This document shows, piece after piece, positions 54,911 to 60,391 of a stretch of DNA of 64,000 bases (the first letter of the stretch is position 1; every line of letters starts with the position of its first letter). The position numbers and the translations under genes were made by a program. The notes beneath the pieces are model-generated. The model made no database searches. It was not told the DNA's origin and saw only the letters and a list, made by a program, of their open reading frames with translations. Origin of the DNA: Pelagibacteraceae bacterium AG-325-E08 (lineage in GTDB: Bacteria > Pseudomonadota > Alphaproteobacteria > Pelagibacterales > Pelagibacteraceae); contig QBYE01000003.1 of the NCBI GenBank assembly GCA_003282985.1, positions 1,236 to 65,235 of the forward strand, read 5' to 3'.

Positions 54911-55645
54911 TTAATGGTGTAAGTTTAATGCATCATTTAAATAGATGCAGGTTAAGATTGCAAAAACATATGCTTGAAGAAAAGCAACTAAGATCTCCAA
55001 ACCTGTTAAAGCAACCGAAAAACTCAGTGGAAGCCATCCACCGACAATTCCGAGGCTTATTACAAAGCCTCCGAAAACTTTCATCATAGTATGTCCGGCC
55101 ATCATATTTGCAAACAGTCTTACAGATAAACTAATTGGTCGACTTAAATACGATATAATTTCTATAACCACTATTAAAGGGAGCAGTATAACTGGCACTC
55201 CACTAGGAACAAACAATTTTAAGTAACCAAAGCCATGCTTTATAAATCCAATTACTGTTACCCCAATAAAAATAAATGAAGCTAGTACAAAAGTTACTAT
55301 TATATGGCTTGTAACAGTGAAAGTGTATGGGATCATGCCAAACATATTACAGAAAAGTACAAACATAAATAATGAAAAAATAAATGAAAAATATGGTTTT
55401 GCTTTTGAACCCGCGGTGTCACTAATCATTTTAGAAACAAAAGAGTAGCTAAGTTCAGCTAACAGCTGAATTTTATTTGGCAATATCGAATTTTTTTTTG
55501 AACCCAAATTGAAAATTATCAAAATTGCTAAAGAGCTAATAGCCATAAATAAACTTGCATTGGTAAAAGAAATGTCAAATGTACCTATTTTAATTTCTGG
55601 ACCAATTCTATAAACTTCGAATTGTGTCATTGGATTTGCTGCCAT
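54911..55645 (-). CDS. atpB: ATP synthase F0 subunit a
   Basis: SFTNAS, SLSVRLFANM.AGH, LQAYVF. Confidence 0.97.
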   Translation of the reverse strand: MAANPMTQFEVYRIGPEIKIGTFDISFTNASLFMAISSLAILIIFNLGSKKNSILPNKIQLLAELSYSFVSKMISDTAGSKAKPYFSFIFSLFMFVLFCNMFGMIPYTFTVTSHIIVTFVLASFIFIGVTVIGFIKHGFGYLKLFVPSGVPVILLPLIVVIEIISYLSRPISLSVRLFANMMAGHTMMKVFGGFVISLGIVGGWLPLSFSVALTGLEILVAFLQAYVFAILTCIYLNDALNLHH

Positions 55646-55655
55646 AAGTTTTTAT

Positions 55656-55931
55656 CTATTTTTGCATATTTTTAGCAGATTTGACTACATTTGTTATTCC
55701 AGCAATCACACCTACAAAAAAAAATATTAAAATTAACCATGGTTTAGTACCAAAGGTCTTGTCTAAAATAAACCCAATAATTGTCCCTACTGCTACTGCT
55801 GACACTAATTCAGTACTCAGCTTAAAAGCAGTGCCAATTGAAGACGGATTACGTTTCTTGTCCTCTAAATTTCTCCTAGAAACCTTCTTTTTTGCAATCT
55901 CTAAGCGAGTTTTAAACGGATCTTTAGACAT
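55656..55931 (-). CDS. atpI: ATP synthase protein I (AtpZ/AtpI family)
   Basis: ELVS.V.VG..IG..LD..FGT.PW; first gene of the F0 cluster. Confidence 0.88.
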   Translation of the reverse strand: MSKDPFKTRLEIAKKKVSRRNLEDKKRNPSSIGTAFKLSTELVSAVAVGTIIGFILDKTFGTKPWLILIFFFVGVIAGITNVVKSAKNMQK

Positions 55932-55944
55932 TTTGTTTATTTAT

Positions 55945-58341
55945 TTAGGCAACCATACTTTCTGCTTTTTGTAAATCAACAGCAACTAATTGGCTAATAC
56001 CTTTTTCGGGCATTGTAACACCATACAGTCTGTTCATTTTAGACATGGTTAAAGCATGGTGGGTTACAATAATAAATTTTGTATTTGTAATTTTTATAAG
56101 TTCTTCGAGCAAGCTACAGAATCTTGTGACATTGGCATCATCTAGTGGAGCATCTACTTCATCTAGCACACAAATTGGTGAAGGATTTGTTAAAAAAACA
56201 GCAAAAATTAGTGATAGTGCTGTTAGAGCTTGTTCACCACCAGACAACAAAGTTATCGATTGAAGTCTTTTTCCAGGAGGACTTACTAACATTTCTAAAC
56301 CAGCTTCAAGTGGGTCTTCGGAATCAACTAATTCTAACTTAGCATTTCCACCATTAAAGAGTTTTGTATAAACTTCATTGAATTTTCTATTTACTTTTTC
56401 AAAAGCTTCAATTAATCGCTCTCTACCTTTTTGGTTTAATTCTTTAATACTATCTTTAAGTTTAACAATTGCACTCACCAGATCGGCACGATCTTGTTCC
56501 ATCTTTTTAATTTCAGACTCATATTTGTTGGTTTCTTCATCAGCTTTTAAATTAACTGATCCTAATTTCTCTCTTTCCTGTCTTTTTTTATCAAGTAAAT
56601 CCTCTTGATTAACAGCATCAGGAAGATCTTCGGCTCCATACAGATTCGAATTCTCTAAAATATTTTCCTCAGTTAAATTTAGTTCAGAAGTTATTCTATC
56701 AATCAAATCGCTTTTTCTTTTTTGGAGACCTTCAATTGTTGCTCCAGAACTTGCTTTTCTTTCTCGAATTTGAATAGATTGTTCTTGAACCTCATTTAGT
56801 TGTGCTCGTAGAGTATCTATTTTTTCATCTGTAGAATGAATTATAGACTCATTATCTTCTTTTTCTTTTTCAGAAATCCTTAGACCTTCCGAAATTTGAC
56901 CTTTCTTTTCAGCTTGTAATTTTGGTTGATTATCTAATTTTTCCAACTGCAAATTCAATCTATTTTTTCTGTCGGTAAGCTCAGAAACCATTTTTTCAGA
57001 ATTTGATAATAAATTTTTCCAACTCTCAATTTCCTTATCTATAATGCTTATTCTCTCGTTTCTTTTTACAGAATCTTTTTTTATATTTTGGTTTTTACTA
57101 TAACTATCCGCATATTCCTCGATAATTAATTGACAGTTTTCTAAAACAACTATTGCTTCACTATTTTTTTGCAATTTAATTAATTCCTTAACTTTATCAA
57201 TTTCTTTTCTTAATTTATTTTTTGAATTATCTAAATCCTCATTAGATTTTTTTTCAGTATCATAATATTTAGAGTCAATTTCAATAAGTTCACTTTTTTC
57301 CTCTTTAAGTCTTTTTTCATTTGAATTTGCATCAATGACAATTCCCTTTTCTCTATTGATATCTTCATCGAATGTTCTAAGAGACTTTTTTATATTTTCT
57401 ATTTCATCTTGAATTCTTGTATTTTCTTCATCAAGTCCCTGCAATTCCAAATTAAGCCTTTGTATTTTTGAGAGATTTTCTATGTTTTTTTCTCTTAAAG
57501 GATTTACTTTTTCAGTTTGAGTTTTTATAAAGTTTTCAATCTTTGAAATTTTTTCATTAAAACCGCTCACTTCTCCTTCTGCTTCAGTATTAATTTCATT
57601 TTCAATTTTAATTTCTTTGTCAATTTCTAATAATTTTAAATAATATAAACCTGCCTCTATCTTTTTAATCTCATCAGACATATTTTTATATTTAGTAGCC
57701 TCTTCAGCTTGTTTTTGAAGATTAGCTAGTTGTTTTTCTTGTTGTCTTCTAAGCTCATCAGCTCTTTTTAAATTATTTTCAGCAGCACTTAATCTCAGTT
57801 CCGCCTCATGTCTTCTAACATGTAAACCAGATATTCCTGCAGCCTCCTCTAAAATAGCTCTTCTATCTGTTGGTTTTGCAGTTACTAAAGCACCTATACG
57901 TCCTTGGCTGATCATAGAGGGTGAGTGTGCGCCGGTTGATAAATCAGCAAAAAACATCTGTGCATCTCTTGCTCTTACCTCTTTATTATTTATATAGAAT
58001 TTAGACCCTTTATCTTTTTCAATTTTTCTTCTAACACTTATTTCATCTAAGTCTCTAAACTGAACAGGACCTTCATTATTTTCATTTGCCACAGTGACTG
58101 AAACCTCAGCAATGTTTTTTGATGTTTTGTTTGAGGTACCAGAAAATATTACATCTTCCATACCTGAACCTCTCATGCTTTTGGCAGACGTTTCTCCCAT
58201 AACCCATCTTAGAGACTCTACAATATTAGATTTACCACAACCATTGGGGCCAACAATTCCTGTTAAACCGTCTTCAATTAAAAAGTTGGTTTTATCAGCA
58301 AAAGATTTAAACCCATTTAATTGGATTTTTTTAAACTCCAT
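55945..58341 (-). CDS. smc: Chromosome segregation protein SMC (short, apparently hinge-less)
   Basis: GFKSF, GPNGCGKSN, SQG, EEAAGI, LSGGE, LDEVDAPLD, VTH; only 798 aa. Confidence 0.9.
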   Translation of the reverse strand: MEFKKIQLNGFKSFADKTNFLIEDGLTGIVGPNGCGKSNIVESLRWVMGETSAKSMRGSGMEDVIFSGTSNKTSKNIAEVSVTVANENNEGPVQFRDLDEISVRRKIEKDKGSKFYINNKEVRARDAQMFFADLSTGAHSPSMISQGRIGALVTAKPTDRRAILEEAAGISGLHVRRHEAELRLSAAENNLKRADELRRQQEKQLANLQKQAEEATKYKNMSDEIKKIEAGLYYLKLLEIDKEIKIENEINTEAEGEVSGFNEKISKIENFIKTQTEKVNPLREKNIENLSKIQRLNLELQGLDEENTRIQDEIENIKKSLRTFDEDINREKGIVIDANSNEKRLKEEKSELIEIDSKYYDTEKKSNEDLDNSKNKLRKEIDKVKELIKLQKNSEAIVVLENCQLIIEEYADSYSKNQNIKKDSVKRNERISIIDKEIESWKNLLSNSEKMVSELTDRKNRLNLQLEKLDNQPKLQAEKKGQISEGLRISEKEKEDNESIIHSTDEKIDTLRAQLNEVQEQSIQIRERKASSGATIEGLQKRKSDLIDRITSELNLTEENILENSNLYGAEDLPDAVNQEDLLDKKRQEREKLGSVNLKADEETNKYESEIKKMEQDRADLVSAIVKLKDSIKELNQKGRERLIEAFEKVNRKFNEVYTKLFNGGNAKLELVDSEDPLEAGLEMLVSPPGKRLQSITLLSGGEQALTALSLIFAVFLTNPSPICVLDEVDAPLDDANVTRFCSLLEELIKITNTKFIIVTHHALTMSKMNRLYGVTMPEKGISQLVAVDLQKAESMVA

Positions 58342-58349
58342 GAATTAAC

Positions 58350-58925
58350 TTATATCAGTTTTTCTAGAGATTTTTTTAAATTTTTATAATTTAGAGATTT
58401 TTCAAACTTTTTATTGTTGATAATTATCGTAGGAGTAGCATTTACTTTAAATTTTTTTGTTCCTTCGATTCGATCATTTAAAACAAAATCTTCAATTTCT
58501 TGATTATTAATGCATTTTTCAAAGTCAATATTAAAACCTTCTTTTTCAATAAATTTTTTAAGATTATCATTTACTTCCTCTATTGTGCTTCCTTTCACCC
58601 AGACTTGTTGATTAGAATATAAACTCTCTAAAATTTTTAAACTATGACCTTGATTGCATTGAGAAATTTTTGAAGCATTAAAAGCAGCAATATCGAGAGG
58701 AAAATGTCTAAACTCTATTTTAGCTAATCCAGTATCAATATAATCTTTTTTTAGTCGAGGATAAACATCCTTATGAAAATCAGCACAATGACTGCAAGTT
58801 AAAGACTCATATGCAATTATGGTAATTTTTGCATTTATATTTCCTGATACTATCCGTTTAGTTTCTGCACTAGTACTTATTGTAGTTACAAAATATAAAA
58901 TAAGAGTAATTATAATTTTTTTCAT
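58350..58925 (-). CDS. DsbA-family thiol-disulfide oxidoreductase
   Basis: YESLTCSHCADFH, FRHFPLD, V.ATPT; signal peptide. Confidence 0.9.
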   Translation of the reverse strand: MKKIIITLILYFVTTISTSAETKRIVSGNINAKITIIAYESLTCSHCADFHKDVYPRLKKDYIDTGLAKIEFRHFPLDIAAFNASKISQCNQGHSLKILESLYSNQQVWVKGSTIEEVNDNLKKFIEKEGFNIDFEKCINNQEIEDFVLNDRIEGTKKFKVNATPTIIINNKKFEKSLNYKNLKKSLEKLI

Positions 58926-59410
58926 TTTTCTTTAAAAACTTTCGTTAATTCTAGTAAAGATTTTTTAATTTTTTCATTTTTAATATTACTAATTTTGTCC
59001 TTAAATTTATAATTTGTCACATTTAAATTTGAATCACTTTTTTCCATTACAATTTTTCTCTCATCATAAAAACTAGTTAATTTAATATTCTCAACTACTT
59101 GATCTCCAAAAAAAGTGTTCATTCTAGTAATGATCTCTTTTTTTGAATATTCTAAATCAACCTCATTACCCCTTCTTACCATTACTGTTAAAGTGTTAAC
59201 ACCAAACTTATTAAATTTTTTATACGATTTTGGATAGCAGACTTTAAATAAATTTTCTCCTACAATATGCTTCCAATTATTTAAAGTTTCAGAATAAATT
59301 TGACCTTTTTTACTTATAAACTTTTTGATATTTTTTGGCAAAGTGTCTTTGAAGGATCTTAATCCTTGAATGCTTCCGTTTCTCTGCTTAGTATATTTTT
59401 TAAATTGCAT
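58922..59410 (-). CDS. DUF721/DciA-like protein
   Basis: W..IVG..L...C.P, L.V, I..R.N.FFG...V..I pattern; typical mutY/DUF721/dsbA/smc context. Confidence 0.7.
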   Translation of the reverse strand: MQFKKYTKQRNGSIQGLRSFKDTLPKNIKKFISKKGQIYSETLNNWKHIVGENLFKVCYPKSYKKFNKFGVNTLTVMVRRGNEVDLEYSKKEIITRMNTFFGDQVVENIKLTSFYDERKIVMEKSDSNLNVTNYKFKDKISNIKNEKIKKSLLELTKVFKEK

Positions 59411-60391
59411 ATGAAAGATCAATTAGTAACAAAAAAAATTCTTAAATGGTACGATTTAAATAAAAGATCATTACCGTGGCGAAAAAATGTTTCTTTTCAA
59501 AAAAGACAGTATTACACGTTAGTAAGTGAATTTATGTTACAACAAACACAGGTTGCAACAGTTATTCCTTATTTTAATCGATTTATAAAAGATATCCCAA
59601 ATTTAAAAGCTCTTTCAAAGGTCCAGAACAAAAAATTAATAAAATTATGGGAAGGACTTGGATATTATTCTAGAGTTAGAAATCTAAAAAAAACTGCACA
59701 AAAAATTATTAAAAACTTTAATGGAAAGTTGCCTGATAATTTTGAAAATTTGATATCGCTTCCTGGGATAGGAAACTATACTGCAAGTGCAATTTTATCA
59801 ATTGCATTTGATAAACCTTACATTCCATTGGATGGAAATATAGAAAGAGTTCTAAAGCGATATTTGTATTTAAAAAAAGATAGAGATATTCAAAAAGATA
59901 ATCTTATAAAAAAAAAATCAATATTTGGAACGTCATCAAGACCCAGTGATTATGCTCAAGCTTTGATGGAATTAGGAGCATTAATTTGTAAACCAACCAA
60001 TCCTTTATGTCATCGATGTCCTATTTCAAAGAAGTGTAAGTCGTTACTTAAAAAAGATTTTGATTTAACAAAAAAAAATAAAAAAAACATAAACAAGTAC
60101 TTTCTTTTAAAAGTTTATAAAAAAAATCAAAGATATTTACTGATTAAAAATACTAAGTTTAATTTTTTAAAAAATTTGACAATCTTTCCAATGGAAGAGT
60201 TATCAAAACCAAAAAATTTTGATGAAAATTTAAACTTTAAAATGTCAAATATGAACATGAATATAAAAATTAAATATTTGAAAAATACCAGAAAATTTCA
60301 ATCACCTTATTGGATAAATGAAAAAAAATTAGATAATTACATGCTACCATCATTTACAAAAAAAATTGTGAAATATTTAATGAGAAATTAA
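59411..60391 (+). CDS. mutY: A/G-specific adenine glycosylase
   Basis: R.LPWR, SEFMLQQTQV, WEGLGYYSR, LPGIGNYTA, DGN, CKPTNPLCHRCP....C Fe-S motif. Confidence 0.93.
   Translation: MKDQLVTKKILKWYDLNKRSLPWRKNVSFQKRQYYTLVSEFMLQQTQVATVIPYFNRFIKDIPNLKALSKVQNKKLIKLWEGLGYYSRVRNLKKTAQKIIKNFNGKLPDNFENLISLPGIGNYTASAILSIAFDKPYIPLDGNIERVLKRYLYLKKDRDIQKDNLIKKKSIFGTSSRPSDYAQALMELGALICKPTNPLCHRCPISKKCKSLLKKDFDLTKKNKKNINKYFLLKVYKKNQRYLLIKNTKFNFLKNLTIFPMEELSKPKNFDENLNFKMSNMNMNIKIKYLKNTRKFQSPYWINEKKLDNYMLPSFTKKIVKYLMRN

Follow-up and report, generated by a model that had tools for sequence, protein, structure and literature searches.

Introduction

The hinge is one of the defining features of SMC proteins, a constitutive site of dimerisation through which the ring is closed and to which roles in DNA binding and loading have also been ascribed. 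Here we describe an smc gene of Pelagibacteraceae bacterium AG-325-E08, a member of the Pelagibacterales (SAR11), whose product has no hinge. The gene lies at 55945..58341 on the minus strand of a 64,000-nucleotide (nt) stretch of contig QBYE01000003.1 (assembly GCA_003282985.1, positions 1,236 to 65,235), hereafter the window. An earlier reading of the letters alone (the original prediction) had placed a protein of 798 amino acids (aa) at 55945-58341; a single open reading frame (ORF) is indeed found there (798 codons plus stop), on a strand that the earlier reading did not give, and the ORF listing and the score against TIGR02168 identify it as a hinge-less Smc orthologue.

The nearest engineered parallels come from Bacillus subtilis, where Smc(Zh), carrying the Rad50 zinc hook in place of the hinge, is functional, so that the native hinge fold can be dispensed with in that species (Burmann et al. 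2017, PMC5344682). Mini-Smc, with arms shortened to permitted lengths, is functional as well, and the B. subtilis arms show a functional periodicity of 91-99 residues; natural prokaryotic Smc arms have length modes of 238 and 341 residues (PMC5344682). The Smc(Zh) chimera keeps a dedicated dimerisation module, the CxxC hook, whereas the SAR11 Smc has none; the SAR11 protein is moreover natural, old, and present throughout its order in the genomes searched.

Among natural proteins, an abundant "hinge-less" SMC clade was reported from ocean metagenomes and assigned to Actinobacteria (Environ Microbiome 2025, PMC12153180). Its members have a head and a coiled coil with neither hinge nor CxxC in AlphaFold models, and they branch with actinobacterial Smc; the study raises the mechanism of a hinge-less SMC as a question, and does not mention SAR11 or Pelagibacter. 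Our own literature searches brought up no publication describing a hinge-less Smc in SAR11 or Pelagibacter. The SAR11 Smc resembles the reported clade in being marine, abundant and hinge-less. Nevertheless, the published description, the grouping and the gene context set it apart: since it groups with other Pelagibacterales Smc and sits in an alphaproteobacterial gene context, its membership in that clade is unlikely. As the clade is assigned to Actinobacteria, the loss in SAR11 would be an independent event within the Alphaproteobacteria.

Two other families end their coiled coils without a globular hinge. RecN combines an SMC-like head with a hinge-free coiled coil and dimerises through apical helices (PMC4255302), but it belongs to a different family, its coiled coil reaches about a quarter of the SMC length, and kleisin and kite partners are lacking. 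Rad50/SbcC, like the SAR11 Smc, has a long coiled coil ending in a small apex; however, Rad50 dimerises via a CxxC zinc hook, and no Pelagibacterales arm has a CxxC. A further point of comparison is the canonical Smc of the B. subtilis and Caulobacter type, with which the window protein has in common the gene context, the ABC head, the neck, the joint and the antiparallel arm, and whose partners ScpA, ScpB and ParB are likewise retained in the SAR11 lineage. Compared with a canonical Smc of about 1150 aa, the window Smc measures 798 aa, has no hinge, has arms that are shorter by about 98 residues per strand, and is predicted to end in a three-residue turn within a 28-aa hairpin.

Results

Identity of the gene and its ATPase head

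The window Smc scores 672 bits against TIGR02168 (NCBIfam, SMC_prok_B; curated cut-off 567.35), covering the profile in two stretches, 2-478 and ~694-1181, with the middle of the profile skipped. Pfam reports a split SMC_N along with several generic ATPase families. Rad50 NCBIfam models give only 18-47 bits against cut-offs of at least 700. The RecN model TIGR00634 (cut-off 407.85 bits) matches nothing in the window's own genome at E≤0.001, and recN was likewise not found in five complete relatives (G013, G064, G067, G071 and G109), where weak matches fell only on smc; on the Smc of Pelagibacterales relatives this model scores 30-38 bits, below its cut-off. Since the RecN and Rad50 models score so far under their cut-offs, the gene is not a RecN, SbcC or Mks-type paralogue; it is the resident smc orthologue, shortened in place. 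Near-identical proteins carry differing labels at NCBI, either "SMC" or "AAA family ATPase".

The full set of head motifs that had been read from the sequence could be located, from aa 31-39 to aa 759-762, all on the minus strand. The N-terminal half of the head (aa 1-168, 57838..58341), predicted by AlphaFold2 as a beta/alpha head with a predicted local distance difference test score (pLDDT) of ~80-92, holds the Walker A motif GPNGCGKSN (aa 31-39, nt 58225-58251) and the Q-loop SQG (aa 145-147, nt 57898-57909). The C-terminal half (aa 640-798, 55948..56424) holds the signature LSGGEQ (aa 699-704, nt 56230-56247), the Walker B/D-loop ICVLDEVDAPLD (aa 723-734, nt 56140-56175) and the H-loop VTHH (aa 759-762, nt 56056-56067). 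These catalytic motifs are invariant in an alignment of 61 Smc sequences. Foldseek finds the head similar to the Smc head structures 5h68 (template modelling score 0.91-0.93), 4i99 and 3zgx, with 5xei, a Pyrococcus Smc head with coiled coil and joint, as the top match of the protein.

Absence of a hinge

No Pfam match to SMC_hinge (PF06470) was found in the window Smc even at E≤10. By itself this negative is weak in Alphaproteobacteria, since PF06470 barely detects the hinges of full-length alphaproteobacterial Smc: two control proteins (loci L015 and L023) reach only 23.4 and 17.2 bits, with the cut-off at 22.5. The model also fails on the 865-aa Smc of G213, a streamlined alphaproteobacterium of a different order (1.41 Mb genome), whose retained hinge is plainly visible in the alignment. 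PF06470 was thus rejected as a single test for the hinge. As a side observation, domain-based screens for proteins with "no hinge" will yield false positives in Alphaproteobacteria.

Given this weakness of PF06470, we built a custom alphaproteobacterial hinge hidden Markov model (HMM; 185 positions, from 30 full-length alphaproteobacterial Smc, run with all filters off). The custom HMM recovers the hinge of the G213 Smc (L046, G213:C1:707800-712300; hinge at aa 368-534) at 96 bits (E 7e-28), and therefore detects a hinge in a similarly short Smc. It finds no match in the window Smc or in 29 further Pelagibacterales Smc. The G213 gene has the same gene context, and only its arms are shortened, to ~160-220 residues; it represents an independent and different route to a small Smc, and its retained hinge indicates that small size alone does not remove the domain. 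A split hinge gene elsewhere was also sought: six-frame translation of the window's own genome (1.02 Mb, 88.7% complete) gave 6210 ORFs, none of them matched by the custom HMM (best 5.6 bits, E=4).

A zinc hook of the Rad50/SbcC type is absent too: the arms of 30 Pelagibacterales Smc, the window protein included, contain no CxxC, in keeping with what had been read from the window alone. The sole arm cysteine of the window Smc, Cys403, gives way to F, L, I or T in relatives, ruling out a zinc hook or a conserved cysteine at the tip. Overall, the lack of a hinge claimed in the original prediction is borne out by Pfam, by the custom HMM and by the AlphaFold2 monomer; neither a hinge match nor a hinge fold was found in the middle of the protein.

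One trace of the lost domain may survive in the second Pelagibacterales family (loci L003-L014), whose Smc carry a conserved VEGYDDPxNWTxxFxEKFY at the arm tip (aa ~420-445). MAFFT aligns this motif to the first ~20 residues of the full-length hinge, and the custom HMM does not detect the region; the motif may possibly be a hinge relic.

Shortened arms and a hairpin tip

Residues 1-380 and 408-798 of the window Smc align with residues 1-381 and 762-1154 of full-length alphaproteobacterial Smc, such that a 28-aa hairpin takes the place of ~380 residues and the net loss is ~355 aa. This agrees well with the earlier estimate that ~350-390 aa, comprising the hinge and the distal arms, are missing. 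With fixed boundaries, the arm strand measures 235.5 residues, as compared to 334±2 in 30 full-length relatives; the loss is made up of the hinge (~155 aa) and ~98 residues from each arm strand.

In the AlphaFold2 model of the window Smc there is no globular middle domain. The N-terminal arm strand (aa 169-389, 57175..57837, minus strand), which aligns with residues 169-381 of full-length relatives, is predicted to consist of a neck helix (171-209), a break (210-221) and a long helix (222-389). A three-residue turn follows (aa 390-392, nt 57166-57174, minus strand; pLDDT 81-87). The C-terminal arm strand (aa 393-639, 56425..57165, minus strand) would then return through helices 393-470 and 472-554, a joint-like interruption (555-599) and a neck helix from 600 to 662. 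The breaks at 210-221 and 555-599 coincide with the position of the Smc joint, and the region from aa 170 to 660, previously read as a continuous coil, is thus not one coil. This model predicts a long intramolecular antiparallel coiled-coil arm with a joint, its distal parts paired. In the place of the hinge stands the apex hairpin cassette IDKVKELIKLQKNSEAIVVLENCQLIIE (28 aa, aa 381-408, 57118..57201, minus strand); within it lies the amphipathic segment pointed out before at aa ~380-410, ELIKLQKNSEAIVVLENCQ, which corresponds to aa 386-404 (nt 57130-57186).

The shortening of ~98 residues per strand equals about one coiled-coil superhelical period, and the resulting 235.5 residues lie near the natural mode of 238; Pelagibacterales forms of ~810 aa have 242-243.5 residues per strand. 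Arm-length quantisation fits the 798-aa and ~810-aa forms (235-243.5 residues) and does not fit the 857-881-aa forms, and is therefore suggestive only. The published arm census located hinges by alignment (PMC5344682), and hinge-anchored surveys of this kind probably miss such proteins.

Distribution across the Pelagibacterales

We examined 151 Pelagibacterales genomes that were at least 85% complete, from 10 genera and two families; the tallies include one unpublished genome (G115), on which no claim rests. A short Smc was found in 147/151, and a Pfam hinge match in none of the 151. Intact proteins range from 798 to 881 aa. In the window's genus most are 857 aa and the others 798 aa; two other genera have 809 aa and 811-814 aa, four further genera 858-859 and 880-881 aa, and the second family 863-864 aa. 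Elsewhere in the Alphaproteobacteria, Smc measures 1104-1523 aa, typically ~1150 aa. Complete single-contig genomes exist for both the 798-aa and the 857-aa forms, and the 798-aa protein recurs at 92-100% identity on hundreds of contigs labelled Candidatus Pelagibacter or Pelagibacterales, with one cluster representative alone present on 226 contigs. A full-length smc in close relatives, pointing to a collapsed assembly, was not encountered; the relatives are all short, complete genomes included. The shortened gene reported for the window is therefore real, although the trait is not that of one gene but is found throughout the order in the genomes searched.

Rooted on six full-length alphaproteobacterial Smc, the gene tree separates the Pelagibacterales and G213 proteins from those six with 100% support. 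The hinge was presumably lost in an early ancestor of the Pelagibacterales, as judged from the sequences compared. No Smc match at E≤1e-40 was obtained for a third (27) of the 81 alphaproteobacterial families sampled, about two-thirds of them with genomes of 2 Mb or less; the Pelagibacterales keep a shortened Smc. Short SMC_N clusters also occur in the ESM Atlas in phyla of the candidate phyla radiation, in Actinomycetota and in Spirochaetota, where at most three Pfam families are shown per cluster, so that absence of a hinge is not established for them.

The 798-aa and 857-aa forms differ around the tip. The apex cassette of the former is homologous to aa 410-437 of the latter (mean BLOSUM 48, next-best offset 11), and the 857-aa form has ~29 extra residues ahead of the cassette and ~30 behind it. 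Such matched indels on both strands would be expected for antiparallel strands that must pair. The two forms coexist in one genus, where the 798-aa alleles are paraphyletic on the Pelagibacter Smc gene tree, and sister genera carry forms of ~858 aa. Parsimony needs a single change (approximately unbiased test of 798-aa monophyly p=0.04, chosen post hoc), and the pattern suggests insertion or recombination of the tip region; gain, loss and recombination could not be told apart on the gene tree. AlphaFold2 breaks the helices of the 857-aa form at 394-400, 419-421 and 443-445 (pLDDT 52-76 there).

In three single-contig relatives smc is frameshifted: in G139 and G182 at a run of ten A within LDEKKK codons (L077 2640-2660; L078), and in G091 at L079 ~2940-2950. 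As both halves are still 94-98% identical to intact genes, these frameshifts look like sequencing errors or very recent events such as slippage.

Selection and partner genes

Between 798-aa alleles, the head has an approximate dN/dS (ratio of nonsynonymous to synonymous substitution rates; Nei-Gojobori) of 0.015-0.03 and the arms, in most pairs, one of 0.05-0.14; the window smc is thus under strong purifying selection. Near the turn, a K/Q-N-x-D/E-A cap-like motif is kept in the 798-aa forms, with a related N-x-Q-A at the aligned position of the 857-aa forms; in longer Pelagibacterales forms, Gly/Pro/Asn-rich breaks flank the apex. In the window's genus only, the hydrophobic fraction of the apex (0.37-0.43) exceeds the arm average (0.31).

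The window's own genome encodes ParB, and it encodes ScpB, truncated by the start of contig 9. Of the scpAB pair for which a search had been proposed, scpB was thus recovered, cut by the contig start, while scpA was not found in the 88.7%-complete assembly. In a complete genome with a 798-aa Smc, scpA stands directly upstream of scpB, both intact, and ScpA is present in all five of the complete Pelagibacterales relatives; its absence from the window's genome is hence best explained by an assembly gap, and we infer that the gene falls in the gap before contig 9.

Discussion

We are quite confident that the window gene encodes a true, functional Smc orthologue without a hinge and with shortened arms, one that most likely works as Smc-ScpAB with ParB and whose far ends may still associate. 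The protein combines a canonical ABC head, neck and joint with an antiparallel arm of ~235 residues per strand, about 33-35 nm long as compared to ~50 nm in canonical Smc and predicted to close on itself through a short alpha-helical hairpin. Judging from the genes retained, its partners in a chromosome-organising complex are most likely the kleisin ScpA, the kite ScpB and ParB. Two Smc molecules would be joined at the head end as in canonical Smc, by ScpA bridging and ATP-driven head engagement; if the far end is held at all, this would be through the two hairpin tips packing with low specificity into a small helical bundle rather than through a dedicated domain. The far end probably still matters, since arms of ~235 residues are kept under selection with matched strand lengths. 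Weak tip association is favoured because such arms would be hard to explain with free ends.

Besides the missing scpA, and the fact that its position in an assembly gap is a matter of inference, several observations weigh against this reading. The 28-aa apex is the fastest-evolving part of the protein; its dN/dS, where it could be computed, is 0.24-0.36, with one pair exceeding 1. As dS approaches saturation, all dN/dS values given here are rough, and their ranking is consistent. Between Pelagibacterales genera the tip varies in length and sequence, with no shared motif; CxxC is absent from it, and Cys403 is variable among relatives. A basic DNA-binding patch at the tip was considered and rejected, as the net charge near the apex is about zero and differs between genera, leaving no consistent patch. 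Arm-arm contacts compensating for the hinge were rejected as well: at equal head identity, arm identity is 0.255 in Pelagibacterales and 0.348 in hinge-bearing relatives, the opposite of the predicted trend, and with arms no more conserved than in those relatives there is no sign of contacts that replace the hinge. The period match of the window arm may be coincidence, the 857-881-aa forms having arms of 265-278 residues, off the 238-aa mode; and the AlphaFold2 model is one of the monomer only (61-sequence alignment, mean pLDDT 82.5). Together, these measurements do not favour a dedicated replacement of the hinge or a specific, conserved apex interface.

Much of this would suit the main rival of weak tip association, an open complex in which the tips never associate and the two Smc are joined only by ScpA and the ATP-engaged heads. 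With no closed Smc lumen, it would clamp or bridge DNA at its heads and within the kleisin compartment. A tip that is the least constrained and most length-variable region and lacks a conserved motif, that bears no hook, hinge or basic patch, and that caps arms not more conserved than usual is what such a complex would lead one to expect, and the retained ScpA and ScpB could bridge two heads. On the other hand, ~235-residue arms are maintained under purifying selection with indels matched on both strands, and the engineered B. subtilis Smc tolerated a swap of its hinge for another dimerising module, not its removal (PMC5344682). We therefore consider the open complex rather unlikely, although it deserves serious attention. 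If it were true, a chromosome would be organised and segregated without a closed Smc ring, and the tip closure on which ring-entrapment and loop-capture models rely would not be universally required.

A constitutive dimer of the RecN type, formed by specific and rigid pairing of the apical helices, with heads possibly pointing apart and engaging between dimers, appears improbable. RecN itself dimerises via apical helices (PMC4255302), no recN turned up in the window's own genome or the five complete relatives, and within the genus the apex is somewhat more hydrophobic than the arms, its cassette being conserved between the 798-aa and 857-aa forms. Nevertheless, the protein is no relative of RecN (TIGR00634 either finds no match or scores 30-38 bits, the cut-off being 408), conservation of the apex does not extend across genera, other genera do not share the excess hydrophobicity, and the kleisin and kite partners, which RecN does not use, are retained.

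We give little credence to a domain-swapped dimer, in which the N-terminal arm of one molecule would pair with the C-terminal arm of another to form a two-headed rod. The turn has only three residues, and matched strand indels fit intermolecular as well as intramolecular antiparallel pairing. However, AlphaFold2 predicts a hairpin with confident scores at the turn, the 798-aa forms preserve the cap-like motif there, and in the longer forms the apex is bordered by breaks rich in Gly, Pro and Asn; to our knowledge, all SMC proteins studied fold back intramolecularly. Finally, a decaying relic or an assembly or annotation artefact is refuted as a general explanation and can practically be discarded: the frameshifts in three complete relatives and the 27/81 sampled families without Smc might hint at decay, but the frame is intact in nearly all of ~150 genomes, the catalytic motifs are invariant, dN/dS is 0.015-0.14 over head and arms, a protein of identical length recurs on hundreds of independent contigs and in complete genomes, and the frameshifted halves remain nearly identical to intact copies.

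An order-wide hinge-less Smc kept by selection is a new structural variant of a well-known machine. A very abundant ocean order maintains the heads, arms and partners under selection without a hinge or a substitute hook, where experiments in the laboratory had gone no further than exchanging the hinge for another dimeriser. SAR11 thus provides a natural test of whether tip closure is needed and of how little structure suffices, and the order offers several natural arm and tip lengths for comparison (798, ~810, ~860 and ~880 aa). With hinge loss published for an actinobacterial clade too, its apparent recurrence in streamlined lineages suggests a link with very small cells or genomes.

Gene neighbourhood

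The order of genes around the window smc is mutY / dciA - dsbA-like - smc - atpI - atpB. Upstream of smc lie the dsbA-like gene (58350-58925, minus strand; Pfam Thioredoxin_4) and dciA (58922-59422, minus strand; Pfam DciA), with mutY (59366-60391, plus strand; Pfam HhH-GPD) beside dciA; downstream are atpI (55656-55931, minus strand; Pfam ATPase_gene1) and atpB, coding for ATP synthase subunit a (54911-55645, minus strand; Pfam ATP-synt_A). As judged by tblastn, a dsbA-like gene adjoins full-length smc in all 29 of the alphaproteobacterial loci that gave matches, atpI and/or atpB follow smc in 25 of these 29, and the dsbA-like gene is present at every Pelagibacterales smc locus fetched. Counted from the first start codon of each, the divergent dciA and mutY ORFs share 57 nt; their real start codons probably lie further downstream.

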